Assembly: GCA_016794565.1 (NCBI GenBank)
Contig: JAEUHQ010000103.1
Span: 34,409 to 98,408, forward strand
Direction: 5' to 3'
Source: Planctomycetota bacterium
GTDB taxonomy: Bacteria; Planctomycetota; UBA1135; UBA2386
DNA length: 64,000 bases
This document shows, in pieces, positions 502 to 56,376 of the stretch (position 1 is its first letter; the number at the start of each line of letters is the position of its first letter). The notes below the pieces were generated by a model. It worked only from the letters and a program-made list of their open reading frames with translations. It searched no databases and had not been told where the DNA came from. The position numbers and the translations under genes were made by a program.

Positions 502-584
502 GGCCGCTGCGCCGGGAACGCGAACTTCGTGCGAACGGCGCGCCCCTCCGGTTCGCTGCCCCCCGGGAGGCCTCGATCCGAGCC

Positions 585-2771
585 ATGAACCGCCATCTCC
601 CCCGCTGGGCAGCCGCCGCGGCGCTGTCCCTCCTCGCTCCGTCCGTCCTCGCCCAGAACCCCGGCACGTTCCACCTGCGCCTCAGGGAACAGGCTGCGCT
701 GCAGCAGCTCGACGGCGAACTCTGGGGCATCGGCCCCGACTTCAAGGCCGCGTTCCGCCCGGACGGTGTCGAGTTCACCCCGGCGCTCGGCCGGCGCGCG
801 GCGCGGAACCACCCGGTGACGCTGCGCACGGTCTCGGTCGGTCGCGGCACGACCGCGGCCGCGGTCCCGGCGGCGGTACCGGAGGCGGCCGGGCAGCGGG
901 CCCGCTACGACCGCGGCGACGTCGCGGAGCGCTACGACGTGACCCCACGCGGGCTCGAGCAGTCGTTCGTGTTCGACCGCCTTCCCGCCGGCGACGGCGA
1001 CCTCGTCGTGCGCGTCGCGGTCGAGACCGATCTGCCGCTGGTGCCAGGCACGGCGGACGGCCTCCGGTTCGAACTGCCCGAGGTCGGCGGCGTCGCGATC
1101 GGCGGCGTCACGGGCATCGATGCTGCGGGCGAGAACACGCGCGGAACGATCACCTGCGACGGCCGGGTCGTCGAACTCCGACTGCCCGCGGCATTCGTCG
1201 ACGGTGCAGCGCTGCCGCTCGTGCTCGATCCGCAGATCGGCGCGGTGTTCCCGGTGACGAGTTCGACGCAGGACTACCAGGATCCGGAACTGACGGCGCC
1301 CTGCGTCTCCGGCGACGTGTACCTCTGCGTCTTCGAACGTGAGTTCAGCGCGACCGACCGCGACATCCGCGGCATCCGCGTCGACGGGTCCGGCGCCGTC
1401 ACTGGTTCGTTGTTCGCGCTGACGACCGGCACGGGCGACGACCGCGATCCGACCGCCGCGGCCGTGCCGATGCGGAGCGCGTGGCTCGCGGTGTGGACGC
1501 GCGGCGGCGACCTGTTCACGCGCTCCGTCGCGTCGACGGGGACCGTGAGCAACGAGTTCACCGCGGTGTCGGGCGCCAACAACCAGATCGAACCCGACCT
1601 CGGCGGCGACGCGACGGGGACCGTGGACGACCTCGTGCTGGTGTTCCGCAACTCGTCGCTGAACGCGGTCCAGTGCAGCACGATGACGCTGTTCTCGAAC
1701 GGCATCATCGCGACGTCGGCGCCGGCGACACTCGGTACGACGATCGCCGGCAACAACATCGGCCGCCCGCGCATCGCGCACGACGGCGGCGCGCTCGGCC
1801 GCTACCTGATCGTCTACCCGCTGACGCCGGGCTTCAGCGGCAACACGAAACCGCAGCTCGTGCTGATCGACCGCGACGTGAACGTTCTCGCGACCGGCGC
1901 GATCACGAACGGTGGCAACGACAACGACCGGCCCGACGTCGACGGCGACGGCCGCAACTGGGTCGTGGTCTTCGAGGACGAGTTCATCGAGGGCACTCAG
2001 GACAACGACGTCGTCGCGATCGCGGTCTGGCATCACGAGGCCGGCGCATCGCTGCAGATCGGCGCGCCGCAGTTCGTCACGAACATCGCGAGCGTGAACG
2101 AGACGGACCCCGTCGTCGCGTGCTTCGGCAACGGCTCCGCGCTGGTCGGCTGGCGCCGGCACAGCGGTCTCGTCGCCGCGAACACCGACCTCTTCTGCAA
2201 GACGGTCGACCAGCTCAGCTGCACGACGTGCGAACCGACCGTGCTGCTCGCGAACACCACCAACATCGAGACCAACTTCGCGATCGAGTGCCACCCGTCG
2301 ACCGTGAACGAAGGGATCGTGCTGTGGGAAGTGTCGACGTCGAGCAGCGGCAACGGCGACCTCGACGCCGCGATCTGGGACGCGGAGGACGGCGACGTGG
2401 TGACCCCGTTCGGCGGCGAAGGCTGCGGTCCGAACATCTACTCCGTCGCGGGCTGCGCTCGCGTTGGCAACGCGGGGTTCCAGGTGTGGGTCCGCGGTTT
2501 GTCGATCCCGACGAGCTCCGTGTTCGTGCTGTCGCTGAGCCAGGGCTTCCTGCAGTGCGGCCCCTGCCGGATCTACCCCGACATCTACTCCGGCCTCGTG
2601 CTGTACCCCGTGGCCGGCATCAGCGGCGCGGTGGTCGGCCTCTCGATCCCGAGTGAGCCGGCGCTCAGCGGAATGCGGTTCTACACGCAGTACCTCGTGC
2701 CGGCCTCGGCCCCCCTGTGCACGTGGCTCGGTCGCGACGTCACCAACGCCCTCTCCATCACCATCCAGTGA
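585..2771 (+). CDS. Family A secreted paralog, copy A2 (728 aa): signal peptide, periodic VW-containing repeats, divergent Cys-containing C-terminal module
   Basis: ATG at 585 is in frame with ORF 51-2771. N-terminus MNRHLPRWAAAAALSLLAPSVLAQ is a signal peptide. Real-protein composition, unlike the upstream R-rich extension. Repeated motifs AWLAVW, NWVVVFEDEF, ALVGWRR every ~55 aa. The C-terminal ~120 aa carry CGPN..C..QCGPC cysteines. Confidence 0.7.
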   Translation: MNRHLPRWAAAAALSLLAPSVLAQNPGTFHLRLREQAALQQLDGELWGIGPDFKAAFRPDGVEFTPALGRRAARNHPVTLRTVSVGRGTTAAAVPAAVPEAAGQRARYDRGDVAERYDVTPRGLEQSFVFDRLPAGDGDLVVRVAVETDLPLVPGTADGLRFELPEVGGVAIGGVTGIDAAGENTRGTITCDGRVVELRLPAAFVDGAALPLVLDPQIGAVFPVTSSTQDYQDPELTAPCVSGDVYLCVFEREFSATDRDIRGIRVDGSGAVTGSLFALTTGTGDDRDPTAAAVPMRSAWLAVWTRGGDLFTRSVASTGTVSNEFTAVSGANNQIEPDLGGDATGTVDDLVLVFRNSSLNAVQCSTMTLFSNGIIATSAPATLGTTIAGNNIGRPRIAHDGGALGRYLIVYPLTPGFSGNTKPQLVLIDRDVNVLATGAITNGGNDNDRPDVDGDGRNWVVVFEDEFIEGTQDNDVVAIAVWHHEAGASLQIGAPQFVTNIASVNETDPVVACFGNGSALVGWRRHSGLVAANTDLFCKTVDQLSCTTCEPTVLLANTTNIETNFAIECHPSTVNEGIVLWEVSTSSSGNGDLDAAIWDAEDGDVVTPFGGEGCGPNIYSVAGCARVGNAGFQVWVRGLSIPTSSVFVLSLSQGFLQCGPCRIYPDIYSGLVLYPVAGISGAVVGLSIPSEPALSGMRFYTQYLVPASAPLCTWLGRDVTNALSITIQ

Positions 2772-2785
2772 ACGGGATCCCGACC

Positions 2786-4954
2786 ATGCGACTCTCCTCC
2801 TTCGCGCTCCTGCTCGTTCCGTTCACGCCGCTGCTCGCCCAGGAACCGCCGCGTCCCGCCTTCGATCTCCGCGCCACGTACGGCGTGATCCGCGCCGACG
2901 ATGGCACCGCGTGGACGATCGGCGAGGACTACAAGGCGTGCTGGACCGGCCGCGGCCTCACGTTCACGCCGGCCCTCGGCGAACGGGCGCGCGCGAACCG
3001 CGACCTCTCGCTGCGCGTCGATCGCGTGCAGCGCGGCGCAGTCACCGTTCTCGCTCCCGTCGACGCCGCGGCGCCCGAGATCGGCGAGCGTCACCTCGCG
3101 GTGGTTCGTGGCGAGGTCACCGAACGCTACGACGCGCGGCGGGACGGCGTCGAGCAGAGCTTCGTGTTCGCGACGCGGCCCGCGGGCGAAGGCGACCTCG
3201 TCGTGCGCCTCGCAGTGGAGACCACGATGACGGCCCGCACCGAGACCGACGGCACGCTGTTCTTCCACGACGGCGAAGTCGGCGGCGTCCGCATCGGCCA
3301 CGTCACCGGCGTCGACCGCGACGGTCGTCGCACCCGCGGCTCGCTGCGCACACTCGACGCGAGTGCGATCGAACTGCGGCTGCCCGCCGACTTCGTCGAC
3401 GGCGCCAGCTACCCGATGACGCTCGATCCGCTGCTGGCGACGGCGTTCCTCGTCGGCAGCGGCAACGACGACCAGCACGTCGACGCGGCGCACGGCGCGT
3501 TCGACGGCAACTGGCTCGTCGTGTGGCAGACCGTCTTCTCCTACTTCGACCAGGACATCCGCGCGCAGCGCGTCGCGAGCAACGGCTCACTCGTCGGCGC
3601 CGTGATGTCGCCGTTCCCCACCTCGACGCCCGAGACCAACCCGTCGGTGTGCTACGTGCGCAGCAAGAACATGCACGTGCTGTGCTGGAACGAAGCGACC
3701 GTCCCGTTCGGCCCGTTCACGCTGCGCGCGCGCAGCGTCGGCACGTCCGCGTTCGGCGCCGTCGTGAACGTCTCCGGCAGCGGCGGCGCCAGCGGCGGCA
3801 CGTTCCGCACGTGCGGCGATCGCTCCAACACCGGCAGCAAGGCCCTCGTCGTGTGGAACAGCACCGCAAACAGCGGCACGACGATCGTCGCGACGACGCT
3901 CGACCTCACCGCGACGGGTCTGCTCACCGCGAGTGCCGGCATCGACGTGTCCACCGCGACGGGCCTCTTCACCGACTCGTTCGTTCTCGGCAAGAGCCGC
4001 ACCCCCACCGGCCAGGTGCTGCTCGGCGCCGCGCTGCCGTTCTTCGCGGTGCTCTTCTACGCGCAGGCGCTCAGCTACGACGGCGCGATCGCCGGCACGA
4101 AGCTCGCGGTCGGAACGATCGGCCCGAACGGCTTCCGTACGATCGCGATCGACGGCGACGGCCCGCAGAACGTCGCCGTGTGGCGCGACTCGGCGAACAC
4201 GCTGCAATGCCGGACGGTGACGTGGAACGGCACCGCGCTCTCACTCGGCACGCAGACCACACTGACGAGCAACCCCGGCGTGTCGTGCGACATCGGACTC
4301 CTGGGCGAACGCTACGTCGCGGTATGGAGCGAACCGACCGCGAACCCGTTCGACGACGACCTCGTCGGCATCGCGCTGAAACCCGACTGCAGCGTCTGCA
4401 GCAACAAGTTCGCGTTGACACAGGTCGATCGACCGAGCGCGATGCTGCCGTGCGTCGCCCCGACGTTCGCGAGCGGCACGTCCGGCGGACAAGCGCTGAT
4501 CACGTGGGAAGAACGCGACATCACGCCGCCATTCCGCGGCAGCATCGCGGCTCAGCGCTTCGACGCGATGGTCGGCGCACCCGCCGTGTTCCTCAGCGCC
4601 GGTTGCGGCAACGGCGGCACCGCGACCACGGTCGGCCCGTTCTCGCCGGGCAACGACGACTTCGCGTTCAGCCTGTCCGGCGGCGACCCGACCGCGCCGT
4701 TCGCGTTGATCAGCCTGAGCCTCGGCGGCTCGTCGATCCTCTGCGGCTGCGAACTCACGAACTTCCTCGTCCTCGAGGCCACCCTGGCCCAGGCCGGCGC
4801 GTCGCGCTACGCGTTCAAGCCGTGGTGCGACCCGAGCTACCTCGGCACGGACATCGAGTTCCAGTGGCTGCTGTGGCCCGCCGCGCAGAGCCCGTGCCCG
4901 ATCGTGGAGAACCTCGCCGCGAGCAACCGCAGCCTCGTCACGCTGCGGCCGTGA
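2786..4954 (+). CDS. Family A secreted paralog, copy A3 (722 aa)
   Basis: ATG at 2786 (MRLSSFALLLVPFTPLLAQ signal peptide) is in frame with ORF 2717-4954. It starts 14 nt after the A2 stop. Repeats include WLVVWQT, ALVVWNS, NVAVWRD, YVAVWSE and ALITWEE. The C-terminal 128 aa are nearly identical to A1. Confidence 0.7.
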   Translation: MRLSSFALLLVPFTPLLAQEPPRPAFDLRATYGVIRADDGTAWTIGEDYKACWTGRGLTFTPALGERARANRDLSLRVDRVQRGAVTVLAPVDAAAPEIGERHLAVVRGEVTERYDARRDGVEQSFVFATRPAGEGDLVVRLAVETTMTARTETDGTLFFHDGEVGGVRIGHVTGVDRDGRRTRGSLRTLDASAIELRLPADFVDGASYPMTLDPLLATAFLVGSGNDDQHVDAAHGAFDGNWLVVWQTVFSYFDQDIRAQRVASNGSLVGAVMSPFPTSTPETNPSVCYVRSKNMHVLCWNEATVPFGPFTLRARSVGTSAFGAVVNVSGSGGASGGTFRTCGDRSNTGSKALVVWNSTANSGTTIVATTLDLTATGLLTASAGIDVSTATGLFTDSFVLGKSRTPTGQVLLGAALPFFAVLFYAQALSYDGAIAGTKLAVGTIGPNGFRTIAIDGDGPQNVAVWRDSANTLQCRTVTWNGTALSLGTQTTLTSNPGVSCDIGLLGERYVAVWSEPTANPFDDDLVGIALKPDCSVCSNKFALTQVDRPSAMLPCVAPTFASGTSGGQALITWEERDITPPFRGSIAAQRFDAMVGAPAVFLSAGCGNGGTATTVGPFSPGNDDFAFSLSGGDPTAPFALISLSLGGSSILCGCELTNFLVLEATLAQAGASRYAFKPWCDPSYLGTDIEFQWLLWPAAQSPCPIVENLAASNRSLVTLRP
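4568..4954 (+). repeat. Direct repeat copy 2 (partner of 115-501)
   Basis: Same alignment. The intervening A2 3' end (2390-2771) is much more diverged. Confidence 0.8.
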
Positions 4955-10745: not shown

Positions 10746-10760
10746 CCGGCGCGCCCGTGT

Positions 10761-12959
10761 ATGGTGCGTCGCATGCGAACTCCGATCGCCGCTGCCGCGA
10801 CGCTGACGTGCATGGCCGTGCTCGCCGCCCAGGAAGGCGTGCCGCGACCCCAGGGCCTCGTGCCCGAACAGATGTGGCCCGCGCCCGGGGAAAGCGACTG
10901 GAAGAAGCCCGTCGTCATCCAGTGGCAGCGCACGTGGGACGACGCCGTGCGCCTGTCGCAGGCGACGAAGCGCGCGATCCTCGTGTGCGTCAACATGGAC
11001 GGCGAGATCGCCAGCGAGCACTACGCCGGCATTCGCTATCGCGACCCCGAGATCGGCAAGCTGTACGAACCGTACGTCTGCGTGATCGCGTCGGTCTACC
11101 GCCACAACCCGCGCGACTACGACGACCAGGGGCGCCGCATCCCGTGCCCGCGCTTCGGCTGCGTCACGTGCGGCGAGCACATCGCCCTCGAACCGCTCGT
11201 GTACGAGAAGTTCCTGAAGGGCAAACGCATCGCGCCGCGCCACATCATGGTCGAGCTCGACGGCAGCGAGAGCTACGACATCTACTACCGGTGGGACACC
11301 GCATCGGTGTTCAAGGACATCGCGGACGGCATCACGAACCGGAAGGTGCAGACGGTGCCCCTCGTGAAAGGCGACCGTTCGCTGCTCGAGCGCCTCGAGA
11401 GTCCCGACAGCGCCGATCGACAGCAGGTCGAGAGCGAGTTCGCCAAGGCGACTCCCGAACAGCGCCGCGCGATGGTCGCCGCCGCGATCGGCGCCGGCGA
11501 ACTGGCGCCCGTCGAGATCCTGCGTCTCGCGGCGTGGGGCCTCGATCCGGCGCTGGCGCAGGAAGCGCGCAAGGGCATGGTCGTCGCCAAGGACCCGGGC
11601 ACCGTCAACCTGATCGCCGAGACGCTGCGCGCGCCGCTCGAACACGAGGAGCGCAAGGAGCTGGTCGCGGCCTTGGGCCGCTTCGGTTCGACGTCGACGT
11701 ACGCACAGGCGCTCGCGACCGCACATCAGGGTCTCGACGGCACGACCACCTCCATCGACACCGGCAAGTGGTCGCGCGCACTCGCCGCGCAGACCTACGC
11801 ACCGCCCGCGAGCGAGGATCTCACGACGGCGCTCGAGCAGAGCGACAAGGCCCTGGCCGCCGAGCCGTCGGACCCCGCGGCCCGGCTCGACGCAGCCGAA
11901 GCGAGCCTGCTGCAGGCGCTCGACACGACATCGAGCGGCGGGCGCGGATCGGCGCGGCGAACCGCGGCGGCCCGGCAGTCCCTGCTCTCCGATGCGGAAC
12001 GTCAGGCGAACCTGGCGATCGCGCAAGGTGCGACCGGCTGGCGCCCCACCGCGTTGCGGGCGATCGCCGCGTTCCACCTCGGGCGCGTGCCGGAGGCGCA
12101 CCAGCTCGCGGTCGCGGCGGCGCCCGACCTGCCCCCCGATGCGCCGGGTCGCGTCGCGATGGAAGTGCTCGCGCTGTTCGCCGTGGCCCGGCAGCACGCG
12201 ATCGTCGCCGCGGTGCGCAACAAGCAGACGTGGCCGCCGCAGTGGGCCGCCGACGTGCACGCGGCCTACGCCGTGCTCGCGCACCATCCGCTCGGCCGCG
12301 ACGAACACGCCGCGGATCACTACGACTTCCTGAAGTTCTTCAGCAGCCCCGAGACCGACGCGGTGCTCGACCGCGCCCTCGAGCGCTTCCCCGAGTCGGC
12401 GCTGCTGCACCAGCGGCTCCGCGACCGCATCCTCGAACGGCGCGACCCGGACGCACTCGAGGCCGAGTACGCACGCCGGTTGAACGCGCCGGAAGCGCGC
12501 CCGTCGCTGTCGTGGTTCGCCGGCTACGCGTCCCTCGTCGCAGCCGAGCAGAACCGCCGCAACCAGCGCCGCGAGAACGCTCTCGCCGCGTACCGGCGCG
12601 GCATCGAGCACTTCGAGACGTACGCGAAGCGCTCCGGCAACGAAGACGGCAACCACTACGTCGCGATGGCGAACGCCGGCATCGCGCGCCTGCAGCTCGA
12701 CGCCGGCGACCTGCCCGGCGCGCTGGCCTCGCTGCAGCTCGCCTTCCGCACCGCACCGCTCGCGGCGGCCGCGGTCGACGGGCTCGGCGTCACCGCGGTG
12801 CAGACCGCGGACATGCTGCGTGCGCGCGCCGTCGAGACGAACGCGCAGGACGTCGTACAGGCCGTCGACCAGGCCCTCACGGCACTGCCCGACGAGGCGC
12901 TGATCCCGCCCGAGTACGAACGCGCCTCCGGCAACACGAAGATCCGCCGCCGGCGGTGA
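10761..12959 (+). CDS. Secreted hypothetical protein (732 aa) with N-terminal Cys-rich region and helical-repeat C-terminal half
   Basis: Signal peptide MRTPIAAAATLTCMAVLAAQ. The Cys cluster CPRFGCVTCGEH, plus a CV 25 aa upstream. Ala/Leu-rich helical C-terminal part with real-protein composition. Confidence 0.65.
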   Translation: MVRRMRTPIAAAATLTCMAVLAAQEGVPRPQGLVPEQMWPAPGESDWKKPVVIQWQRTWDDAVRLSQATKRAILVCVNMDGEIASEHYAGIRYRDPEIGKLYEPYVCVIASVYRHNPRDYDDQGRRIPCPRFGCVTCGEHIALEPLVYEKFLKGKRIAPRHIMVELDGSESYDIYYRWDTASVFKDIADGITNRKVQTVPLVKGDRSLLERLESPDSADRQQVESEFAKATPEQRRAMVAAAIGAGELAPVEILRLAAWGLDPALAQEARKGMVVAKDPGTVNLIAETLRAPLEHEERKELVAALGRFGSTSTYAQALATAHQGLDGTTTSIDTGKWSRALAAQTYAPPASEDLTTALEQSDKALAAEPSDPAARLDAAEASLLQALDTTSSGGRGSARRTAAARQSLLSDAERQANLAIAQGATGWRPTALRAIAAFHLGRVPEAHQLAVAAAPDLPPDAPGRVAMEVLALFAVARQHAIVAAVRNKQTWPPQWAADVHAAYAVLAHHPLGRDEHAADHYDFLKFFSSPETDAVLDRALERFPESALLHQRLRDRILERRDPDALEAEYARRLNAPEARPSLSWFAGYASLVAAEQNRRNQRRENALAAYRRGIEHFETYAKRSGNEDGNHYVAMANAGIARLQLDAGDLPGALASLQLAFRTAPLAAAAVDGLGVTAVQTADMLRARAVETNAQDVVQAVDQALTALPDEALIPPEYERASGNTKIRRRR

Positions 12960-16168: not shown

Positions 16169-18010
16169 TCAATAGGTATTGAAGATCGACTGCAGACCGT
16201 TGCTCAGCACGCCACCGAATGCGTTCTGGCCGTTGGGCAGGCTGAACGGCGTGAAGAGGCCCAGCACCTGACCATAGAAGCTGAGGCCCGGCGACAGCGG
16301 CTGCGGCATCGACAGCACGACCGACGACGTCGGAGCAGTGCCAGGCAGCGGGATCGTGACGTCGAGCGACAGGATGTTCAGGTTGCAGCCCGGCATGTCG
16401 AGGAAGCCCATGTCGAGGCCGCCGGGGAACGGAGCCACACTGAACATCAGGATGCCGAGGCCGATGCCGAGCGGCGGCACGAGGTCGATCATGTTCGAGG
16501 CCGTGTACGTGATCGGCACGGTCGGATTGCCGGGCGTGTAGATCGGCGCCGGGGACGCGGACAGGGCGAGGGCCTGGGTCGCGTTGTAGTCCGGCTGCGT
16601 GAGGAACGGCGGCACGGTCGCGAGGCTGATCGAACCCGGATCGAGCGACAGACCCGGCGAGTAGCCGACGACCATGTCGATACCGGCCGAGTTCTGCATC
16701 GCGTTCCACACGAACTTCACGTCGCCGTTGGCGAGGTTGAACTGCAACTGCCAGCGATCGGAGACGCCGGTCGTGTTGTAGCGGACGACGTTCTCCCACG
16801 TGATGTAGAGCACACCACCGACTTCCTGGCTCTTGATCGCTCCGCCCGCCGACGGGTCGTAGTCGGCATTGCTGCGGAAGGACGGGATCACCGCGTTGAG
16901 CAGTTCGAACACGTCGCCGTAGGCAGCGACGTTGTTGTTGCCGATGCCGCCCATGTTCACGAATCCGTTCGAGCACACCGACAGCGTGCCGACCGGACCT
17001 GCGGGCGTCGGGAAGGGGATGCTCGGCGTGACGTCGACTTCGGAGTCGTCGGTCAGCGCGAGCGTCGAGGCGCCACCGGTCGGCGCGACGTAGGTCCCGC
17101 CGCCCCACGTGACGAAGTAGCCCTGGCCAGCGGGCGACATCGTCATCGAGTTGCCCGCCAGGGTCGCCGACCCGGCCGGCGTGCCGAAGTACTGGTAGAA
17201 GGCCTGCGACGCGCGCGGTCCGTAGCAGCCGGAGCCGTACGCGACGTGGTCGGCGCCCGTGCACACGACCGACGAGGTGTAGCCACCGAGCCCGTTCGGC
17301 GAGAAACGCAGCGTCTTGCCGGCGAGCGGGAAGGCACCGAGGTATTCACCCCAGAGGATGCCGACGTTGCCCGAGTTGGCGCCCGCGAGCAGATCGGAGG
17401 CCACCTCCGCCCCCGTGCCCGCCGCGTTGCCGGCCGACACGCCGATCCAGACCGCGTCGACGGCGTTGCCGGGGCAGTTGATGTCGTACGCGTAGTCGAT
17501 GTTGCCGTTGCTGTACAGCGTGCAGCTGAAGCTGAACTGGTCGGTCGGGGTCTGGTACCGCGCGACGTTCTGCCACGTGATCGTGACCTGGTTCGCCGTC
17601 GCCGTGTTCACGAAGATCTCCCACGGGCCGAGCGTCGATTGCTGGATGTCGTCGCCGTAGACGACGAGGCGCGGCGAGCCGAACGCGGCACCGCGCAGTT
17701 CCCCGAGTGTGTCGATCAGGAACTGGATCGGAGCGACGAGGCCGTAGTTCGCGTCGGAGAGATAGACGTGCCCGTTCGAACCGACCCAGATGCGGTTGCA
17801 GACCTGGCCGGGCGCCGTGGTCGGCATCGGGAAGGTGAACCCGAGCTGGATCGGCAGGATGCTGCGGCCTTCGTCGTGGATCGGGTAGCCGCCCCACACC
17901 GAGTACATGGAACCGGATTGTGCGGCGCCGCCGATGTTGGTGAAGCACTGCGCCTGCGACACCGCGGCGAGGGCCGCCACGGCGGAGAAGGAAGCGATGA
18001 GACGATTCAT
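16169..18010 (-). CDS. Family B secreted paralog, copy B2 (613 aa; two internal modules)
   Basis: Complete ORF with signal peptide [22 protein letters not shown]. Duplicated module ITWQNVARY...[18 protein letters not shown] and ITWENVVRY...[17 protein letters not shown]-terminal tail [13 protein letters not shown]...LSNGLQS. Confidence 0.75.
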
Positions 18011-18216
18011 GGAGTTGCCTCTGGGACTTGGGGAGATTCCTGCCAGCGGTCGGAACGACCGGGGGGAGACGAGGAAGGAACCCGGGGAGGACGGTAGTCG
18101 AGGGCCAGGAAATGTCCACCCGGGCCGCCGCGCCGCCGCGCCCGAGCCGCCGCGCCAGCGCGTGGCGGCCGACTCCGAAGGAGCGACCCCGCGCCGAGGC
18201 CGCTAGGATCGTGCCG

Positions 18217-24803: not shown

Positions 24804-25543
24804 CCGACGGCCCGACCGGCGCCATCGATCCCGAGCTGTCGGTCGTCGTCGCGTGCTATCAGGAGGAACGGCACCTCCGGGACTCGGTTCGCGAGCTGAC
24901 GACCACGCTCACCGCTCTCGGCCGCGCGTTCGAGCTGATCTTCGTCGAGGATGCGAGCGAGGACGGCACCGCGTCGGTCGTGCGCGACATCGTGGCGGAG
25001 CGACCGGAAGCACGCGCGATCTTCCACTCCGCGAACGTCGGCCGCGGGGGCACGGTGACCGAGGGCTTCCTCGCCGCGCGCGGCCGGGTCGTCGGCTTCC
25101 TCGACATCGACCTCGAAGTGCACTGCCGCCACCTGCCGGCGCTCCTCGCGGCGATCGACGCGGGCGCCGACGGGGCCACGGCGTTCCGTCACTACCGGGC
25201 GAGCCTGTGGCCGCCACACCTGCTGCGCGAACTGCTCAGCAAGGGCTACCGGTGGCTGTTCCGCCGCATGTTCGACGTGCCGTTCCACGACCCGGAAGCA
25301 GGGTTCAAGTTCTTCGTCCGCGAGAGGATCGTGCCCGTCGTCCGCACGACGCAGGACCGCGGCTGGTTCTGGGACAGCGAGATCATGGTGCTCGCCCACC
25401 GAGCCGGCCTCCGCGTCGTGGAGGTGCCGTGCCCGTTCGAGCGACGCACCGACAAGAAGTCGACCGTGCGTCTGTTCCGCGACGTGTGGCGCTACCTCGT
25501 CGCGATGCGTGCGTTCCGCGCACGGCTGCGCGCCGGGCGCTGA
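24800..25543 (+). CDS. GT2 polyprenol-phosphate glycosyltransferase (ArnC/DPM1/GtrB-like; 247 aa), GTG start overlapping upstream stop
   Basis: LSVVVACYQEE...FELIFVEDASEDGT...FLDIDLE are the GT-A DXD-type motifs of polyprenyl-phosphate sugar synthases. GTG 24800 overlaps TGA 24801-24803. Confidence 0.7.
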   Translation: MTDGPTGAIDPELSVVVACYQEERHLRDSVRELTTTLTALGRAFELIFVEDASEDGTASVVRDIVAERPEARAIFHSANVGRGGTVTEGFLAARGRVVGFLDIDLEVHCRHLPALLAAIDAGADGATAFRHYRASLWPPHLLRELLSKGYRWLFRRMFDVPFHDPEAGFKFFVRERIVPVVRTTQDRGWFWDSEIMVLAHRAGLRVVEVPCPFERRTDKKSTVRLFRDVWRYLVAMRAFRARLRAGR

Positions 25544-25546
25544 CCG

Positions 25547-26209
25547 TCACTCGGCGAACAACTGCACATCGAGCTGCAGCGACAGCCCGACCAGGTCCTC
25601 GAGGACACGCGGCTCGATCGCGAAGCCGCCCATCCGCTCCACGCAGCCGCGCAGCTGCACGGTCACGCCCGCCCACGTGACGCCCCGCATCGCAGCGACA
25701 TCGCGCCAGCCGCTGCGTGCGCGCAGCAGCGCGAGGAGCTCCGCGACCTTCTCCTCCGGCCAGTGGAAGCCGCGCGGCAGCACCTCGTGGATCCACAAGC
25801 CTTCGTCACGCACGTGCCGGCCGTGCGGGCCGGACTCGCCTTTCGCGAACGCACGCGTCGGCGCGAGGTCGAGTGCACGCGTGATGCGATCGGGCGGGAC
25901 GTCGTCGAGCACGAGACGCAGGCCGACGACCGCACCCGGCACGACGGTGAGCTCGCGTTCGTCCCAGCGCTCCCCCGTGCGGCGCCACTGCACCTCGAGG
26001 AAGAACGAATCCGGCTGCAGCCGGTAGCTCGTCACGCCGCGGTCGCCGTCCTGGTGCACGCGTCCCGGCGACGCGTGGCCCCACGCCGGCTGGCGCTCGA
26101 CGAGGGCGCGCACGAGGTCGTTGTTGCTGCAGCGCAGCCGCGACAGCGGCAGGTTCGGCAGCGCCCCGGCGGTCACTTCACGCCTCCGTCGCCGAGCCGC
26201 CCGCAGCAC
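25547..26209 (-). CDS. Hypothetical protein (start uncertain; possible GTG at 26176)
   Basis: Non-artefactual composition in the C-terminal ~170 aa. Overlaps the 3' end of the Pus10-like gene; convergent with the GT2 gene (4-nt gap). Confidence 0.45.
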   Translation of the reverse strand: MLRAARRRRREVTAGALPNLPLSRLRCSNNDLVRALVERQPAWGHASPGRVHQDGDRGVTSYRLQPDSFFLEVQWRRTGERWDERELTVVPGAVVGLRLVLDDVPPDRITRALDLAPTRAFAKGESGPHGRHVRDEGLWIHEVLPRGFHWPEEKVAELLALLRARSGWRDVAAMRGVTWAGVTVQLRGCVERMGGFAIEPRVLEDLVGLSLQLDVQLFAE

Positions 26210-27023
26210 CCGGCAACGGCCCTTGCACGTCGTCCGTCAGGATCTCCTCGACGTCGAGCACGGCGCAGGTGCAGGGCACCTGCAGCAGCGACGACAGCGA
26301 CGGGGAGGTGCGCCCTTCGTCGCCGGAGATCCACTCCTTCACGTACGTCCCGTGCTGGCACGACACGCGCAGTTCGAGGGAGTCGGGCGTGAGCGCGCGG
26401 AGGTCGAGAATGCGGACGTCGCGGATGCGATCGAGATCGGCCCGGCGATGCGAGACGCGTTGCGGCGTGCGCTGCACGATCGTGCCCGCGAACGTCGACG
26501 CCGCGGCGAGTGCCTCCGGCGTCGGCGCCGCGGAGCACGCGACTTCGGCGCGGTAGATCTTGTCGAAGTTGGTCTGCTTCCAGTAGACGACGCGCTCGCG
26601 CGTCACGCGCACGAACGGCGCGAGTTCGATGGCGCCTTCGGAGCGGGCGACGATGTCCTGCCGCAGCGCCTCGAGGTCGAGGTCCGGGCGCCGGGCGCCG
26701 ACGACCTCGAACACGAACGGCCGGCCGCGGCCCAGCATCAGCACGTCGATGTCCTCGCGCCCCGCGCCGTGGAAGCTGCCTGCCTTCGCCTGCATCTGCG
26801 GCAGCACGCGGCGGGCGATGATCTCCTGCACCGACTCCTTCGTCAGCTTGCCGAAGCCATCGCACTGCGGGCAGTCCTTGCGACGCCGCCGATCGCCCTT
26901 GCAGCGCGGGCAGTAGAAGACCGTCTGCGGCAGTCCGCGGCGCAGCTTGCGGTAGCGCGACTCGAGCCAGACGTCGGTGCGCGGGGTCGGGAACGAGAGA
27001 TCGGTCGGCAGCGGCTCTGCCAT
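26178..27023 (-). CDS. Minimal Pus10-like tRNA pseudouridine synthase (281 aa; zinc ribbon plus catalytic domain, no THUMP)
   Basis: CPRCKGDRRRRKDCPQCDGFG is a CxxC...CxxC zinc ribbon. FHGAGREDIDVLMLGRGRPFVFEV matches my recollection of the Pus10 catalytic-Asp motif (GREDVDVRMLG.GRPF). Confidence 0.55.
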   Translation of the reverse strand: MAEPLPTDLSFPTPRTDVWLESRYRKLRRGLPQTVFYCPRCKGDRRRRKDCPQCDGFGKLTKESVQEIIARRVLPQMQAKAGSFHGAGREDIDVLMLGRGRPFVFEVVGARRPDLDLEALRQDIVARSEGAIELAPFVRVTRERVVYWKQTNFDKIYRAEVACSAAPTPEALAAASTFAGTIVQRTPQRVSHRRADLDRIRDVRILDLRALTPDSLELRVSCQHGTYVKEWISGDEGRTSPSLSSLLQVPCTCAVLDVEEILTDDVQGPLPGAAGGSATEA

Positions 27024-27081
27024 GGGGCGGGCAAGTGTGCCCCTCGTTCGACCGGAGGCAAGCGCCGCGAGCCGCGCGGGG

Positions 27082-27510
27082 TCAGCTGGTCGCCGGCGCC
27101 GGGGCGGCCTGTCGGTTCTGCTTGCGCAGCGTCGAGTTCTTGCGTTCCGTCCGGCGCTCGAGGAAACGGCCCAGCAGGCCGAAGAACTCGCGCACGTCGA
27201 TCGGCACCTGCAGGAACGAGTGGATGTTGCACTTGCTCTTCTCGACGGCCATGTCGCGCACGTTGCGCGGCGCCGTCAGGACGAACAGCTCGCTGCTCGT
27301 GTCGAACGAGCGCAGGTGGTGCAACAGCTTGACGGTGTCCTTCTCACGCGGATCGACGCCGAGGAAGACGCAGTCGAAGGCCTTGCCGCGCGCTTCATTG
27401 ATGCCCGCGTAACCCGTGCCGACGGTCACGTGGAACTCGGGGAACTGCTGCAGACCGACCTTCACCTGGTCGCGCACCAGAGGATCCTTCTCGACGAGCA
27501 ACACTTCCAT
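27082..27510 (-). CDS. Single-domain response regulator receiver protein (143 aa)
   Basis: Start MEVLLVEKDP (cat at 27508-27510). Putative phospho-acceptor Asp in FDCVFLGVDP and conserved T/S in FVLTAP. The ORF's 5' extension is a Pro/Ser-rich artefact. Confidence 0.65.
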   Translation of the reverse strand: MEVLLVEKDPLVRDQVKVGLQQFPEFHVTVGTGYAGINEARGKAFDCVFLGVDPREKDTVKLLHHLRSFDTSSELFVLTAPRNVRDMAVEKSKCNIHSFLQVPIDVREFFGLLGRFLERRTERKNSTLRKQNRQAAPAPATS

Positions 27511-27622
27511 GGCGGAGCCTGCTATCGGCACCTCCGGGGTCCGCCGCGCACGTTCTCGCGGTCGCGGCGATGGCATCGGGCGCTTGACCTGCTCCCTGCC
27601 GTGCAGTGTCGTGCCCGCGCCC

Positions 27623-28588
27623 ATGAACTTCCTCGCCGGCGTCGACGAAGCAGGACTCGGTCCGATCCTCGGACCGCTGGTCGTCGCCGGCGTCGCGATG
27701 ACCGGTCCCGAGGGCACCGATCCGTGGAAGGCACTCGCGCGTCACGTCGCGAAGACGAAGCACACGAAGGGCAAGGTGCGCGTCGCGGACAGCAAGCAGG
27801 TGAACCAGGGTCCACACGGCGCCTGCCGGCTCGAAGAGACCGCGCTCGTCTTCTGGACCGCCATGCACGGCGAGCTTCCCGCCTCGCTCGAGGAGCTGCT
27901 CGGGAGGATCGGCGTCGACGTCGCGCACCTGCGCCGCTGCCCCTGGTACGAGGACCTCGCACTCTGTCTGCCGCGCGCTGCCGACGCCGGATTCGTGCAA
28001 CTGCACGGCGCCCTCGTGCGACGCGCGCTCGACAAGGCCGGCATCGCACTCGTCGACCTGGCTCTCCGCCCCGTGGACGTCGAAGAGTGGAACGACCTCA
28101 TCGCCGACACCGACAACAAGAGTCGAGCGCACTTCCGCGCCTACTCCGAAGTGATCGCGCGCCTGCTGGCCCACGCTCCGGCACGATTCGAGCCGGGAGC
28201 CCACGGCCACCTCGTCGCCGACCGCTGCGGGGGTCGCATGCACTACGCCGGCGACCTCGCCCGGCTGTGTCCAGGAGCGACGGTCACCACGGTCACCGAG
28301 ACGCCGGAAGTGTCGTCCTACCGCCTGCACCGCCCCGGCGGCGAGGTCGCGATCACGTTCGCGGAACGCGGCGAGAGCCGCTCCTTCCCGACCGCGCTCG
28401 CGAGCTGCTTCGCGAAATACCTGCGCGAACTGATGGTCGAGGCGATGAACCGATGGTTCTGCGCCCGCGTGCCGGGACTGCAGCCGACCGCCGGCTACTA
28501 CACCGACGGCCATCGCTTCCTCGACGACGTCGAGCCGCTCCTGCGCGATGCTTCGTTGCCGCGCGGGCGACTCGTGCGCGTGCGCTGA
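27623..28588 (+). CDS. RNase HII-family protein with ~100-aa C-terminal extension (321 aa)
   Basis: MNFLAGVDEAGLGPILGPLVVAGV matches the RNase HII DEAGRGP catalytic motif. Second Asp in VADSKQV; possible fourth in ADTDNKS..AYSEVIARL. Confidence 0.55.
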   Translation: MNFLAGVDEAGLGPILGPLVVAGVAMTGPEGTDPWKALARHVAKTKHTKGKVRVADSKQVNQGPHGACRLEETALVFWTAMHGELPASLEELLGRIGVDVAHLRRCPWYEDLALCLPRAADAGFVQLHGALVRRALDKAGIALVDLALRPVDVEEWNDLIADTDNKSRAHFRAYSEVIARLLAHAPARFEPGAHGHLVADRCGGRMHYAGDLARLCPGATVTTVTETPEVSSYRLHRPGGEVAITFAERGESRSFPTALASCFAKYLRELMVEAMNRWFCARVPGLQPTAGYYTDGHRFLDDVEPLLRDASLPRGRLVRVR

Positions 28589-46332: not shown

Positions 46333-47460
46333 TCACTGACGGCCGCGCCAGGTCAGCCGCACCCCCGACGCGCCGGTCCAGGTGATGCCGACCGGCACGC
46401 TCGGCACGAACGTGTCTGGTCGCTCGACCCGGAACGCCCCGGCGCTGCTGCTCGTGATCCCGAGCCGCGTCATCAACTGCCCGCGGAACGTCGTGCCGTC
46501 GAGCGTCTTCGCTTCGCGGACGTAGGTGACTCCCTCGATCACGGCGTTCCCGTTGCGGATCCCGACGAGCGTGCAGCCAGGTGCGAGGATCGCGAGGTTG
46601 CCCGTGTCCGCCGTCCCCCCGCGAACCTGAACCGAACCGTTGACCTGGATCGTCGGAACGCCGAGCAGTTCGGTCAGCGGCGGATACAGACACGGCACGA
46701 CCAGCGTGCCGGTGATCGTGCAGTTGTCGAGCGTCAGCGTCTGGCCGAGCAGCAGGTTGACGACCACGATCCCCGACAGCGTCTTGCCGCTCACCGTCGT
46801 CGTGCCCGTGTAGGTCGTCACCGGCACCGTCCACCCGACGCCCAGCGTGAACGGCAGGGTGTTCCAGGGCGGAGTCGTGAGCGCGGTGACGCCGTACAGG
46901 GTCGCACCCGACTTGTGCACGACCCGGCCCGCGGCCAGCGCGGCGGTCGTGACGAGTTCGAGGTCCCCGCCCATCTGCGCGGGCCGCGCGGCGCTGAACG
47001 CCGGCGGCGACGACGTCTCGCCGAAGTACGCGGATCCGACGACGGTCATCTCGTCGGTGAAGGTGCTCTTGTCGGAGAAGCTCAGCAGCGCGTGCGGGAA
47101 CGGAGCCGCCTCGACGGTCGCGTCGGCCCCGACACGAACGACCGCACCGTACGCGCTGCCGCCGCCGAGCAGGTTCGGGGTCTGTGCCGATCGCACTTGT
47201 GCCGCGACGACGACGCCGGGCGTGAGTTCGGCGCGCCGCGACACGTCGGCGATCCCGCCCGACTTCACGATCGCGGCAGCCCACTCGACGCCCGAACGCG
47301 CCGCACGCTCGGCCCGTTCGAGATCCTGGCCGTTGCCCTGCACCCGCAGCGACATCTCGGCCGTGGACAGGAGCGCCACGGACAGCGCGCTGAACGTGAC
47401 CGCCAGGATCAGCACGACCACGAGGATCACGCCGTGTTCGTCTCTTCGCGACCGGTCCAT
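46333..47460 (-). CDS. PilX-like minor pilin/pseudopilin (375 aa)
   Basis: Start MDRSRRDEHGVILVVVLILAVTFSALSVALL (cat at 47458-47460) resembles the PilX N-terminal domain. Thr/Gly-rich beta-rich C-terminus. Confidence 0.55.
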   Translation of the reverse strand: MDRSRRDEHGVILVVVLILAVTFSALSVALLSTAEMSLRVQGNGQDLERAERAARSGVEWAAAIVKSGGIADVSRRAELTPGVVVAAQVRSAQTPNLLGGGSAYGAVVRVGADATVEAAPFPHALLSFSDKSTFTDEMTVVGSAYFGETSSPPAFSAARPAQMGGDLELVTTAALAAGRVVHKSGATLYGVTALTTPPWNTLPFTLGVGWTVPVTTYTGTTTVSGKTLSGIVVVNLLLGQTLTLDNCTITGTLVVPCLYPPLTELLGVPTIQVNGSVQVRGGTADTGNLAILAPGCTLVGIRNGNAVIEGVTYVREAKTLDGTTFRGQLMTRLGITSSSAGAFRVERPDTFVPSVPVGITWTGASGVRLTWRGRQ

Positions 47461-47533
47461 GCCATGGGCATCGGCCAGGAGTGCCCCGCGAGTGCAGTCG
47501 GGTCCGCTCATCGACCCTGCCGATACCGAGGCC

Positions 47534-48070
47534 ATGAAGCGCCGGCACCGATGGGCCGCGAACGACTGCTCGGGAGCGACGCTCATCGACCTGATGCTCG
47601 TCGTGACGATCCTCGGCATCGTCACGGCGGTGGCCGTACAGACCTTCGACACCGACGAGATGGCCGTCGATGCACTGGCGCGCCAGATCGTCGCCGACAT
47701 CTACCGTTCGCAGAGCCTCGCCATCCGGACCAACACCGGTGTCGGCGTCGCGTTCGACAAGACGGCGAACACGTCGAAGTTCGTTCTCGCGGACGGTTCG
47801 GATCCGGCGACGCAGGAGGCGACGCTCAAAGCGCGCCCCGAAGCCGATGCGGCGGCGGTGGACGAACTCGTCGCCGCGCGCTCCATCGGCAACAAGGCCT
47901 ACGACGACGGCAGGATCACCGCCGTCGACTTCGGTGGAGCGTCCAAGGTCGTCTTCGCGGCCGACGGCCGCGCCGCCGCGCCGGGTTACGTGCAGGTCGT
48001 TCAGGGCGACGCATGGCTCCGGGTCCGCGTCGACGACGTGACGGGTCGGGTGACCATCACCGGCCCCTGA
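47534..48070 (+). CDS. GspH/FimT-like pseudopilin (178 aa)
   Basis: MKRRHRWAANDCSGATLIDLMLVVTILGIVTAVAV is a prepilin-type N-terminus, with a GspH-like C-terminal beta domain. Divergent from the PilX-like gene. Confidence 0.6.
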   Translation: MKRRHRWAANDCSGATLIDLMLVVTILGIVTAVAVQTFDTDEMAVDALARQIVADIYRSQSLAIRTNTGVGVAFDKTANTSKFVLADGSDPATQEATLKARPEADAAAVDELVAARSIGNKAYDDGRITAVDFGGASKVVFAADGRAAAPGYVQVVQGDAWLRVRVDDVTGRVTITGP

Positions 48071-48151
48071 TCCGCCCCTCGTTCGGCGACAGCCTCAAGC
48101 CCGGCCACAGCAGGCGCCGATGCACGAGCGTCGATCACCATGGATCACCCG

Positions 48152-48655
48152 ATGCGCAAAGTCGAGTCAGCATTCACCCTCGTCGAACTCCTCATCGTGG
48201 TCGTGATCCTCGGCATCCTCGCCGCGGTCGCGATCCCGCAGTTCTCCGACAGCACCGAGGAGGCGCGCGCGAGCAACCTCCAGTCGAACCTCGCGGTCAT
48301 GCGGAACGCGATCGAGTTCTACCGCACGAACCACCGCGGCAAGTATCCGGGCTATCCGTCCGGCGGCGGCGCTCCGACCGCTTCCGACGCCACGAACCAG
48401 CTGACGCTCGCGAGCCAGGCCACCGGCGCCACCGCGGCCCCCGGCACGGCGGGCTACGACTACGGGCCCTACATCCGCGAGCAGCTCCCGGAGAACCCGA
48501 TCAACGGGCTCAACACGATCCTGATCGTCGCCGATGCCGCGGCGTTCCCGGCCGCCGACGACTCGACGGGATGGATCTTCCACCCGAAGACGGGCCGCCT
48601 GCGCGCCAACTCGACGGGCACCGCGCCGTCCGGCAAGAACTACTACGACTTCTGA
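48152..48655 (+). CDS. GspG-like major pseudopilin / type IV pilin (167 aa; alternative ATG at 48140)
   Basis: MRKVESA|FTLVELLIVVVILGILAAVAIPQF is a class III signal with Glu+5. GspG-like body (NLQSNLAVMRNAIEFY...GPYIREQLPENP). Confidence 0.8.
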   Translation: MRKVESAFTLVELLIVVVILGILAAVAIPQFSDSTEEARASNLQSNLAVMRNAIEFYRTNHRGKYPGYPSGGGAPTASDATNQLTLASQATGATAAPGTAGYDYGPYIREQLPENPINGLNTILIVADAAAFPAADDSTGWIFHPKTGRLRANSTGTAPSGKNYYDF

Positions 48656-48773
48656 GGCCGTGAACGATCCATGGCCGGCGCCCCCCCAGCGCATCCCCCG
48701 GCACCTGCCCGAGGAGGCCGGTGCACCCCGACCGCGCGGCTGAGGCCGTTCGCCGGAGTGCCCGGGCGCGGCC

Positions 48774-49802
48774 GTGTCGCGTAGCCGCTCCGCCATCGCG
48801 ATCGACATCGGCGACCGCGCCGTCCGCCTCCTGCAGCTCGAACGCCGCGGCGGCACGCTCCGCGTTCGCGCGGCGGCGGCCGAGGCGCTGGAGCCCGCCG
48901 CGACCCCGCCCGACGCGAACGCGCGCCGGGCGCAGGTGGTCGAAGCCGCCCGCCGCGCGCTGCGTCGCGGCGGCTTTCGTGGCGACAGCGCGGTGACCGC
49001 CCTGCGCCTCCGCGACATCGCGACGCGCCACGTGCGCATCGCCAACGACGAACTCGAGCGCGCCGGGGACATCATCGCCCAGAAGGTGCAGGATCCGACG
49101 AGCGCCGCGACCGAACTCGCCATCTGCCCGATCCCCGTCGCCGAACTCTTCGACCAGGGTGAACGCAAGCGCGAGTTCCTCTGCTGCATCGCCAGGGCCG
49201 ACGCCATCCGCGCACTCATCGAGACCACCGAGGCAATCGGGCTGGTGCCGGACGCGGTCGACCTCGAGCCCTGCGCGCTCGTGCGACCGTTCGTGCGCTG
49301 CTCGCCGGGTGACTCGTTCCTGCACCTCGACATCGGCGACTCGGACACCCGGATCACCGTCGTCCGCGCCGGCAACCCGATCCTGATGCGCATCGTGCGG
49401 ACGGGCGCTGCCGATCTCTCGGACCTGCTGCGCGAACGACTGCAGATCGACGTGGATCGCATCCTGGAGCCTGCCGACGCCGACACCGCATCCAGCCTCC
49501 ACTATGCGATCGTCGGCGCACTCGCGGCACCGCTCGAGCGACTGCTCGTGCGAGTGACGGACGGCGTGCGCTACTGCGGCGCTCTCTTCCAGGGCCGCGC
49601 GGTCAATCTGATGCGGGTCAGCGGCCGCCCGGCGCGCTGGCCCGGTCTCGTCGCCTACCTCGGGCGGCGCGCGGGAATCACCACCGAACGCGCCGAGCCG
49701 TTCGCCGGCATCGAGCCGCCGCCGTCCGTGGGGAACGGCGAAGCGACACTGGCCGGCTTCGACACTGCGCTCGGCCTCGCACTGCGGAGCGTCGCGTCGT
49801 GA
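48774..49802 (+). CDS. pilM: PilM-like actin-fold assembly ATPase (GTG start)
   Basis: AIAIDIGDRAVRLLQLE is the PilM N-terminal motif; actin-like fold length (342 aa). First gene of a long coupled operon. Confidence 0.65.
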   Translation: MSRSRSAIAIDIGDRAVRLLQLERRGGTLRVRAAAAEALEPAATPPDANARRAQVVEAARRALRRGGFRGDSAVTALRLRDIATRHVRIANDELERAGDIIAQKVQDPTSAATELAICPIPVAELFDQGERKREFLCCIARADAIRALIETTEAIGLVPDAVDLEPCALVRPFVRCSPGDSFLHLDIGDSDTRITVVRAGNPILMRIVRTGAADLSDLLRERLQIDVDRILEPADADTASSLHYAIVGALAAPLERLLVRVTDGVRYCGALFQGRAVNLMRVSGRPARWPGLVAYLGRRAGITTERAEPFAGIEPPPSVGNGEATLAGFDTALGLALRSVAS

Positions 49803-50359
49803 CCACCGACGTCGACTTCCTGCCGGCGAGCTACCGCGGCGGCACCGTGCGGCGCCGCGAACGGAGAGAACGGCTCTGGCTGGCGATACCGGTCGTCGTC
49901 GCGTCCATCGCCGTCGACGTGGTGCTGCGCATCCGCGTCGCCGGCGTCCGCGAGATGGCGCGCCTCGCCCGCGAGCATGCGACGTTCGGCACCCGGCTGA
50001 ACGAGGAGGCTCAGGAGCTCGCGACGAAGGCGGCCACGATCCGCGCCGAGATCGAGTCCCTGGCGAAACCGCTCGATGCGCGCCGCATGACGCGACTCGT
50101 CGACGAACTGCTCGCCGATCGCCCCGACGGCGTCGCGCTGCACGAACTCTCCGTGCATCAGCAGCCCTGGTCTTCCGCGGCTCCCACGATCGACGTTGCG
50201 GCGCACTGCGCCGATCCGGAGGCGCTCAAGGTCTACCTCGCGGCCCTGCGATCGGCCGACACGCTGCCGCAGCTGTCCTGCGAACGCACCGACGCGCAGG
50301 GCGACGGCAAGGCGTTCGCGTTCGCGCTGAAGGCGAAGGACCCGAGGAGGGCACGATGA
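49799..50359 (+). CDS. pilN: PilN-like inner-membrane pilus assembly protein (GTG start overlapping pilM stop)
   Basis: Single TM (LWLAIPVVVASIAVDVVL) followed by a coiled coil. GTGA overlap at 49799-49802. Confidence 0.55.
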   Translation: MTTDVDFLPASYRGGTVRRRERRERLWLAIPVVVASIAVDVVLRIRVAGVREMARLAREHATFGTRLNEEAQELATKAATIRAEIESLAKPLDARRMTRLVDELLADRPDGVALHELSVHQQPWSSAAPTIDVAAHCADPEALKVYLAALRSADTLPQLSCERTDAQGDGKAFAFALKAKDPRRAR

Positions 50360-50877
50360 ACCGCACCGTGTCCACCCTGCTGACCCTCGTGGGCATCGCC
50401 GGCTCGTACCACCTCGTACTCGGCCGCCTGCATCTGGCCGAGATCCGCGACCTGCAGCGCGAGATCGACGGTTCGTACGCACGCTACGACCGCGCCGAAG
50501 AGGAAGCGACCCATGTCGCGACGCTGAAGAACGCCGTCGCGGCGCTCGCGGAGGCGCGCGACGATCTGCAGAGGCGCACGTCGCGCGATCCTCTTTCCGT
50601 GCCGACGGCCGCGCAGACCCGCAGCGTGCTCGAAGAACACGGCCTCGCGGTCGAACGCGCCGAACCGATGGGCGCCGACCCGTCGCTCGGCATGCCGCAT
50701 CAGCGCACGCGCGTCGTCGCGACCGGCGCGTTCGCCGACCTGTTCGCGGCGATCACGGCGATCGAGAACGACGCCGTCCCCACGCGCATCACCGACCTTT
50801 CGATCCAGACCAACACCGAGCCCGCGCGCGTCCGGACCGAGATGACGCTCGTCCGAGCATGGAGCGTGGACCGATGA
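50356..50877 (+). CDS. pilO: PilO-like pilus assembly protein
   Basis: TM (TLLTLVGIAGSYHLVL) plus coiled coil. ATGA overlap with the pilN stop. Confidence 0.55.
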   Translation: MNRTVSTLLTLVGIAGSYHLVLGRLHLAEIRDLQREIDGSYARYDRAEEEATHVATLKNAVAALAEARDDLQRRTSRDPLSVPTAAQTRSVLEEHGLAVERAEPMGADPSLGMPHQRTRVVATGAFADLFAAITAIENDAVPTRITDLSIQTNTEPARVRTEMTLVRAWSVDR

Positions 50878-55651: not shown

Positions 55652-55653
55652 CC

Positions 55654-56375: not shown

Positions 56376-56376
56376 C

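Follow-up and report, generated by a model that had tools for sequence, protein, structure and literature searches.

Reviews from 2017 to 2025 describe the pseudouridine synthase Pus10 as absent from bacteria and restricted to archaea and eukaryotes (PMC7912444, PMC9957541, PMC12710931, and PMC6380271), and a 2019 paper reported pseudouridine at position 54 (Psi54) to be absent from bacterial tRNA (PMC6380271). Archaeal Pus10 (TIGR01213 and COG1258; e.g., from Methanocaldococcus jannaschii and Pyrococcus furiosus) is about 400-480 aa long and has an N-terminal zinc ribbon and a PF22023 THUMP domain in front of its catalytic domain, and human PUS10 (2V9K) has a large N-terminal THUMP/zinc accessory domain. 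The role of the THUMP domain in Pus10 is still debated, and there is no structure of RNA-bound Pus10 (PMC12710931). Here, we analyzed a 64,000-nt stretch of DNA, referred to as the window, from a Planctomycetota metagenome-assembled genome (MAG) of the Saltatorellus clade (assembly GCA_016794565.1, contig JAEUHQ010000103.1, positions 34,409 to 98,408 of the forward strand). An original prediction, made from the letters of this stretch, had proposed that it encodes a minimal Pus10-like pseudouridine synthase. We find that the protein in question, which we refer to as Pus10-mini, consists solely of a Pus10 catalytic domain. The gene is as follows:

26178..27023, minus strand: Pus10-mini coding sequence, catalytic domain only, 281 aa; ATG start; supported by the open reading frame (ORF) and by Pfam, TIGR01213, AlphaFold2, and fold matches

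Family assignment of the 281-aa protein

The predicted ORF was confirmed as a minus-strand gene with an ATG start, and its GC content at third codon positions (GC3) of 0.86 is typical for real genes in the window, which has an overall GC content of 70.4%. The protein matches Pus10_C (PF21238) in Pfam with an E value of 4.6e-57, in an alignment of aa 20-261 to profile positions 2-231 of 232, and scores 264.8 bits against the NCBIfam equivalog model TIGR01213 ("tRNA pseudouridine(54/55) synthase Pus10"), for which the cutoff is 200. Because the TIGR01213 match spans model positions 160-401 of 402 only, Pus10-mini lacks what makes up the N-terminal 40% of a canonical Pus10. The sole strong sequence match in the PDB is human PUS10 (2v9k; phmmer, E value of 1.6e-26), with the motifs REDxDV, KxY, GTYxKE, and LDV aligned.

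An AlphaFold2 model of the protein, built from 25 sequences, was confident, with a predicted local distance difference test score (pLDDT) of 88.7 and a predicted template modeling (TM) score (pTM) of 0.81. The best PDB match for this model in Foldseek was again human PUS10 (2v9k; E value of 1.1e-21, TM score of 0.73, and root mean square deviation of 2.8 Å over 250 columns), and the next families, i.e., TruA, TruB, Cbf5, Pus1, and Pus3, followed at about 1e-6 to 1e-4. As modeled, the protein has the three-dimensional fold of a Pus10 catalytic domain. We rejected an identity as TruB, the bacterial synthase for pseudouridine at position 55 (Psi55), which has the same superfamily fold and is matched by Foldseek in TruB-RNA complexes at ~1e-5: the score against TIGR00431 is 12.8 bits versus a cutoff of 151.45, and the structural likeness is at the superfamily level only. 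TruB is a member of another family, with a PUA domain and without a zinc knuckle. Profile, sequence, and fold evidence agree on a Pus10-like synthase as originally proposed, and the profiles, rather than pointing to a different fold, identify Pus10_C and TIGR01213; the family assignment is secure.

Conservation of catalytic and loop residues

The residues discussed below map to the following positions:

26715..26774, minus strand: catalytic motif FHGAGREDIDVLMLGRGRPF, aa 84-103 (R89, catalytic D91, and D93), with D91 at 26751-26753
26553..26555, minus strand: Y157, invariant in 221 sequences
26436..26471, minus strand: thumb-loop motif RTPQRVSHRRAD (H192, R193, and R194)
26334..26351, minus strand: GTYVKE motif (V228 and K229)
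26256..26258, minus strand: L256, the stacking Leu, kept in 74 of 74 bacterial members
26862..26912, minus strand: forefinger four-Cys knuckle, C38-P-R-C41 (aa 38-41) and C51-P-Q-C54 (aa 51-54), with the basic 9-residue spacer KGDRRRRKD

Residue conservation was determined from 221 catalytic domains, comprising 74 from a bacterial clade that includes Pus10-mini and 147 of the archaeal type; the 74 bacterial sequences span 41-78% identity. The catalytic domains of archaeal Pus10 are 36-47% identical to Pus10-mini and share with it the active-site residues, the position of the knuckle, and the thumb-loop HRR. Joardar et al. (2013; PMC3753934) described R273, the catalytic D275, D277, Y339, I412, K413, and L440 as core residues of M. 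jannaschii Pus10 (MjPus10), and the counterparts in Pus10-mini are R89, D91, D93, Y157, V228, K229, and L256, respectively. In MjPus10, Y339 packs against the target ribose, the Lys K413 is salt-bridged to the catalytic Asp, and L440 is needed for activity (PMC3753934). The predicted active-site Asp motif was borne out: FHGAGREDIDVLMLGRGRPF aligns to SSGREDVDVRTLGNGRPF of human PUS10, and R89 as well as D91 are invariant across the 221 sequences. Within the bacterial clade, D93 is kept as Asp in 65 of the 74 sequences and replaced by Asn in the other 9, K229 is kept in all 74, and position 228 is either Val (55 sequences) or Ile (19 sequences). The thumb loop is similarly conserved, with H192 in 72 and both R193 and R194 in 74 of the 74 sequences; in MjPus10, H376 and R377 form the thumb-loop "hook" that favors Psi54. 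As judged from this alignment, in which the key residues are kept in 74 of 74 sequences and D93, V228, and H192 vary, the active site is under strong purifying selection.

The four Cys residues, which had been described as a zinc ribbon, are present and invariant in 74/74 bacterial and 146-147 of the 147 archaeal-type sequences. Because archaeal Pus10 catalytic domains carry them alike, they form a forefinger-loop knuckle and not the N-terminal zinc ribbon; human PUS10, unlike Pus10-mini, lacks the four forefinger Cys (LPQTPWIIDGERKL). Judged solely by its spacing from the catalytic Asp, the knuckle probably corresponds to the forefinger loops ffl1 (Cys227-Arg231) and ffl2 (Cys238-Val249) of MjPus10, in which deletion of the ffl1/ffl2 segments abolished Psi54 but not Psi55 activity. 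The spacer between the Cys pairs is 9 aa long in 52 of the 74 bacterial sequences versus 4 aa in 128 of the 147 archaeal-type sequences (CxxC-x4-CxxC), corresponding to a 5-residue Arg-rich insertion in Pus10-mini, and its mean charge is +4.0 in the bacterial versus +1.5 in the archaeal-type sequences.

The N-terminal region

Only 19 residues precede the catalytic domain in Pus10-mini, and the next upstream gene is a separate gene for a receiver-like protein. In Pfam, the protein has no match to a THUMP domain (PF22023 [Pus10_THUMP_arc] or PF02926), and its homolog in the cultured Saltatorellus ferox likewise lacks a match to PF22023. By comparison, PF22023 matches long archaeal homologs at 60-72 bits and, weakly, the 340-390-aa forms of the DPANN type at 26-30 bits. 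An in-frame stop is located 4-20 codons upstream of the match in many bacterial loci, while archaeal loci have 154-221 open codons upstream and ORFs of 400-447 aa. The N-terminal four-Cys zinc ribbon, formed by Cys31/34/106/109 in MjPus10 and also present in human PUS10, is absent from Pus10-mini in the alignment, and ribbon segments of the type LCxxCxGR...CxxC appear in long archaeal proteins alone. The profile searches and upstream stops support that the THUMP domain is truly absent, in agreement with the original prediction, and that the THUMP-less form is clade-wide.

Reduced Pus10 proteins are also found among DPANN archaea ("Ca. Iainarchaeum" and Diapherotrites; 320-390 aa). These proteins are among the nearest sequences to Pus10-mini (about 43-45% identity) and have a shortened N terminus in which the THUMP match is weak or undetectable and the zinc ribbon is missing but, unlike Pus10-mini, keep ~65-130 residues ahead of the catalytic domain. 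Because the DPANN-type proteins P0126, P0129, P0177, and L072 are reduced, Pus10 domain reduction occurs within archaea too. Outside the bacterial clade, further "minimal" Pus10 proteins with lengths of 244-274 aa (P0131, P0250, P0173, and others) were set aside as probable fragments, as their nearest relatives or cluster mates are long proteins.

Bacterial carriers and their evolutionary origin

A search of a large protein database identified 2,087 relatives at an E value of ≤1e-5, and the best 120 of these are all 267-322 aa long. Names among these 120 include [quoted passage not shown] the JGI name "tRNA pseudouridine synthase 10," and "hypothetical." An identical protein is encoded on a contig of the Planctomycetota MAG assembly GCA_041917415.1, and the cluster mate MBL8749521.1 is labeled "hypothetical protein [Planctomycetes bacterium]." In a scan of GTDB with one genome per species, which gave 569 relatives, the best ~70 are from Planctomycetota (41-78% identity), and methanogens and DPANN archaea follow with 42-45% identity. 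The carriers include complete chromosomes of 6.6-7.7 Mb, among them MAG chromosomes of 6.6 and 7.2 Mb, as well as the cultured isolate S. ferox Poly30 (NZ_CP036434.1), in which the protein is ~281 aa long, has Pus10_C only, and scores 244.9 bits against TIGR01213 (cutoff of 200). Thus, Pus10-mini is not a one-off but a clade-wide gene of Saltatorellus-lineage Planctomycetota. The bacterial host and unusual distribution that had been predicted are borne out by the bacterial genome around the gene and by the ~70 species genomes, and with ~70 Planctomycetota species genomes carrying Pus10-mini, a distribution of Pus10 in archaea and eukarya only does not hold.

Seven species-representative MAGs with other titles, i.e., Brocadiaceae, Singulisphaera, Myxococcota, or Paracoccaceae (L005, L010, L012, L021, L022, L053, and L069), also carry the gene. 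Among these, an RNase HII-like gene is present in all six with an upstream flank, and a FabZ-like gene is located downstream in 7/7. These taxonomic labels are probably wrong because the loci sit inside the Pus10-mini clade.

The genes flanking Pus10-mini in the window are as follows:

25547..26176, minus strand: DUF4279 gene (Pfam DUF4279, E value of 6.7e-07); GTG start at 26176 according to gene callers; variable accessory neighbor
27082..27510, minus strand: receiver-like gene, 142 aa, single domain (Pfam Response_reg, 24.6 bits, under the cutoff of 30.2)
27623..28588, plus strand: RNase HII-like gene, 321 aa, divergent; the N-terminal motif alone matches RNase HII models

Across 84 related loci, the divergent RNase HII-like gene is found upstream in 65 and is the most conserved synteny anchor, and a FabZ-like gene on the opposite strand is located downstream in 62. 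This conserved synteny supports vertical inheritance of the gene.

In a neighbor-joining (NJ) tree, 71 bacterial loci and 3 metagenomic representatives form one clade that includes no labeled archaeon. In an 85-taxon subsample, this clade has a bootstrap value of 100/100. It is nested among archaeal Pus10 sequences. The tree points to a single ancient transfer from an archaeon to a bacterium, into the ancestor of the lineage, and the N-terminal domain was presumably lost at the transfer or before. The reduced DPANN-like Pus10 proteins adjoin the bacterial clade in the NJ tree, but a sister position has a bootstrap value of 2-3/100, and therefore we do not claim a donor lineage.

No account of the clade emerged from full-text literature searches that combined Pus10 with Planctomycetes or with horizontal transfer in bacteria, and the description of Saltatorellota does not mention a Pus10 gene. 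Pus10-mini is, therefore, recognized by the NCBI and JGI annotation pipelines yet unremarked in the searched literature.

A predicted stand-alone pseudouridine synthase

We consider it likely that Pus10-mini is a Pus10-family pseudouridine synthase that is active as a stand-alone enzyme and is reduced to the catalytic domain. In the proposed mechanism, Pus10-mini would grip the T stem-loop of tRNA between its forefinger and thumb loops, the target uridine would be flipped out, and U55, and possibly U54, would be isomerized through D91, while the acceptor-stem/CCA docking that is normally provided by THUMP would be dispensed with. More speculatively, the Arg-rich 5-residue insertion in the forefinger knuckle could make up in part for RNA contacts that were lost. 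For both activities of MjPus10, a 17-mer T stem-loop suffices as the substrate (PMC3753934), and the basic residues and zinc-binding Cys of THUMP reportedly matter for Psi54 formation but have no such importance for Psi55 (PMC12710931); because of these two observations, a THUMP-less enzyme is plausible, and Psi55 is the safest prediction. Psi54 stays possible because Pus10-mini retains both the His-Arg hook and the ffl segments. TruB recognizes the T stem-loop alone, and a similar substrate logic is presumed for Pus10-mini.

Several points weigh against this interpretation. The tRNA target and the position, Psi55 and perhaps Psi54, are predicted entirely from homology, and according to the literature, Psi55 in bacteria is normally made by TruB. 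The determinants of Psi54 are in conflict when compared with those of MjPus10, with the forefinger and the His-Arg hook kept, which would favor Psi54, and THUMP absent, which would disfavor it. The compensating role proposed for the Arg-rich insertion is speculative, the overall charge of the catalytic domain is not above that of archaeal homologs, and zinc binding by the four knuckle Cys is putative, as suggested by their pattern.

Among the alternatives, an artifact in the form of archaeal contamination of a MAG, a truncated pseudogene, or a mis-called start hiding a THUMP domain would fit with most carriers being MAGs and with the few short "Pus10" proteins outside the clade that resemble fragments of long archaeal genes. 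We regard this explanation as refuted: the 64-kb window is bacterial throughout (with genes for type IV pili, UvrC, valyl-tRNA synthetase, RecQ, and a Ser/Thr kinase), the gene is present on the complete 6.6-7.7-Mb chromosomes and in a cultured isolate, its synteny with bacterial genes is conserved, its composition matches that of the host, and many loci have an in-frame stop just 4-20 codons upstream. It is also highly improbable that the protein is catalytically dead and functions as an RNA-binding or chaperone protein; although nuclear human PUS10 has catalysis-independent roles (PMC9957541), the catalytic Asp and supporting residues are kept in 74/74 sequences at 41-78% identity, as expected from selection on catalysis.

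Two further explanations were considered. Pus10-mini could be active but retargeted, acting at a different position or on a substrate other than tRNA (e.g., on a motif resembling a T loop in rRNA, tmRNA, or some other RNA), and this possibility gains from the loss of the domain that docks the acceptor end of tRNA, from TruB usually already supplying Psi55 in bacteria, and from long-term retention, which implies a non-redundant role. However, conservation of the knuckle in the forefinger, of the thumb HRR, and of the entire active site is like that in the archaeal Pus10 proteins that modify tRNA, the T stem-loop alone is enough for MjPus10 (PMC3753934), and the gene context suggests no other substrate; we find retargeting unlikely. 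Somewhat less credible still is that Pus10-mini needs a partner in trans, with a separate THUMP-like RNA-binding protein or the upstream receiver-like protein replacing the accessory domain. The receiver-like gene, which shares the strand of Pus10-mini, lies 58 nt upstream and is kept there in 30 loci; yet it is not found at that position in more distant members of the clade, e.g., S. ferox, and none of the neighbors tested has a THUMP match.

If Pus10-mini is active on tRNA as a stand-alone synthase, the archaeal-derived, THUMP-less Pus10 of the Saltatorellus lineage may either have displaced TruB as the Psi55 synthase or install Psi54, a proposal that we put forward tentatively and that could well prove wrong. 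In tblastn searches with Escherichia coli TruB, RbfA, RpsO, PNPase, IF-2, and NusA against the window and 1.33 Mb of clade loci, which cover Pus10 neighborhoods only, no TruB operon was found, and TruB is not mentioned in a planctomycete phylogenomics paper and its supplements. Either displacement of TruB or installation of Psi54 would represent a domain-crossing rewiring of a universally conserved pair of T-loop modifications and would mean that in vivo, Pus10 can work with its catalytic domain alone.

The Saltatorellus clade represents a natural deletion experiment on the Pus10 THUMP domain, and if the 281-aa core works alone, it would mark the smallest unit that can recognize the tRNA T arm. 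Because S. ferox Poly30 has been cultured and its genome is complete, the tRNA pseudouridine pattern and the effect of a gene deletion are directly measurable. The clade would also be a clean example of a tRNA modification enzyme that passed from archaea to bacteria in an ancient transfer. What is new is the THUMP-less bacterial form, as the enzyme family itself is known, and interest is limited in that the family assignment is straightforward and was already made by annotation pipelines.

Gene neighborhood of Pus10-mini

According to gene callers, the DUF4279 gene begins 1 nt past the Pus10-mini stop codon (TGAaGTG). The overlap with a downstream ORF that had been described for this locus does not exist with this start; it arises from choosing the longest ORF, which starts at GTG 26209. 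The TGAaGTG junction suggests that the two genes may be translationally coupled. Because the DUF4279 gene accompanies Pus10-mini in 10/84 related loci only, we consider it a variable insertion. The receiver-like gene is co-oriented with Pus10-mini and located directly upstream in 30 of the 84 loci, all of them from closer relatives, and is a possible operon partner in these closer relatives only. A scan of the region 25300-27900 for promoters and terminators identified no promoter-like site, and terminator-like sites were weak and intragenic only. Scans for tRNA genes identified none in the window, and a single one was identified across 60 loci.

In the receiver-like protein (27082-27510), the usual Lys of the receiver "KP" motif is apparently substituted (FLQVP), and because of this replacement, the protein may be a pseudo-receiver. 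In S. ferox, a gene for an Lgt-like membrane protein (L063, 8955-9920, minus strand), labeled as such from reading the sequence, lies on the opposite strand between the RNase HII-like gene and Pus10-mini, i.e., where the window subclade has the receiver-like gene. In the RNase HII-like protein, only the first ~28 residues with the GVDEAGxGPxxGP motif match RNase HII models, the remainder being unmatched, and its weak PDB matches are archaeal and eukaryotic RNase HII/H2A proteins.

Elsewhere in the window, five large ORFs of ~455-920 aa with coding-like GC3 have no Pfam match at an E value of ≤0.001:

3-2771, plus strand: large ORF
2657-4954, plus strand: large ORF
10746-12959, plus strand: large ORF
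16169-18202, minus strand: large ORF
46333-47700, minus strand: large ORF

The region 48071-58080 on the plus strand contains a type IV pilus gene set encoding a pilin-like protein with an N-terminal methylation motif, PilM, a secretin, and a PilB-type ATPase.

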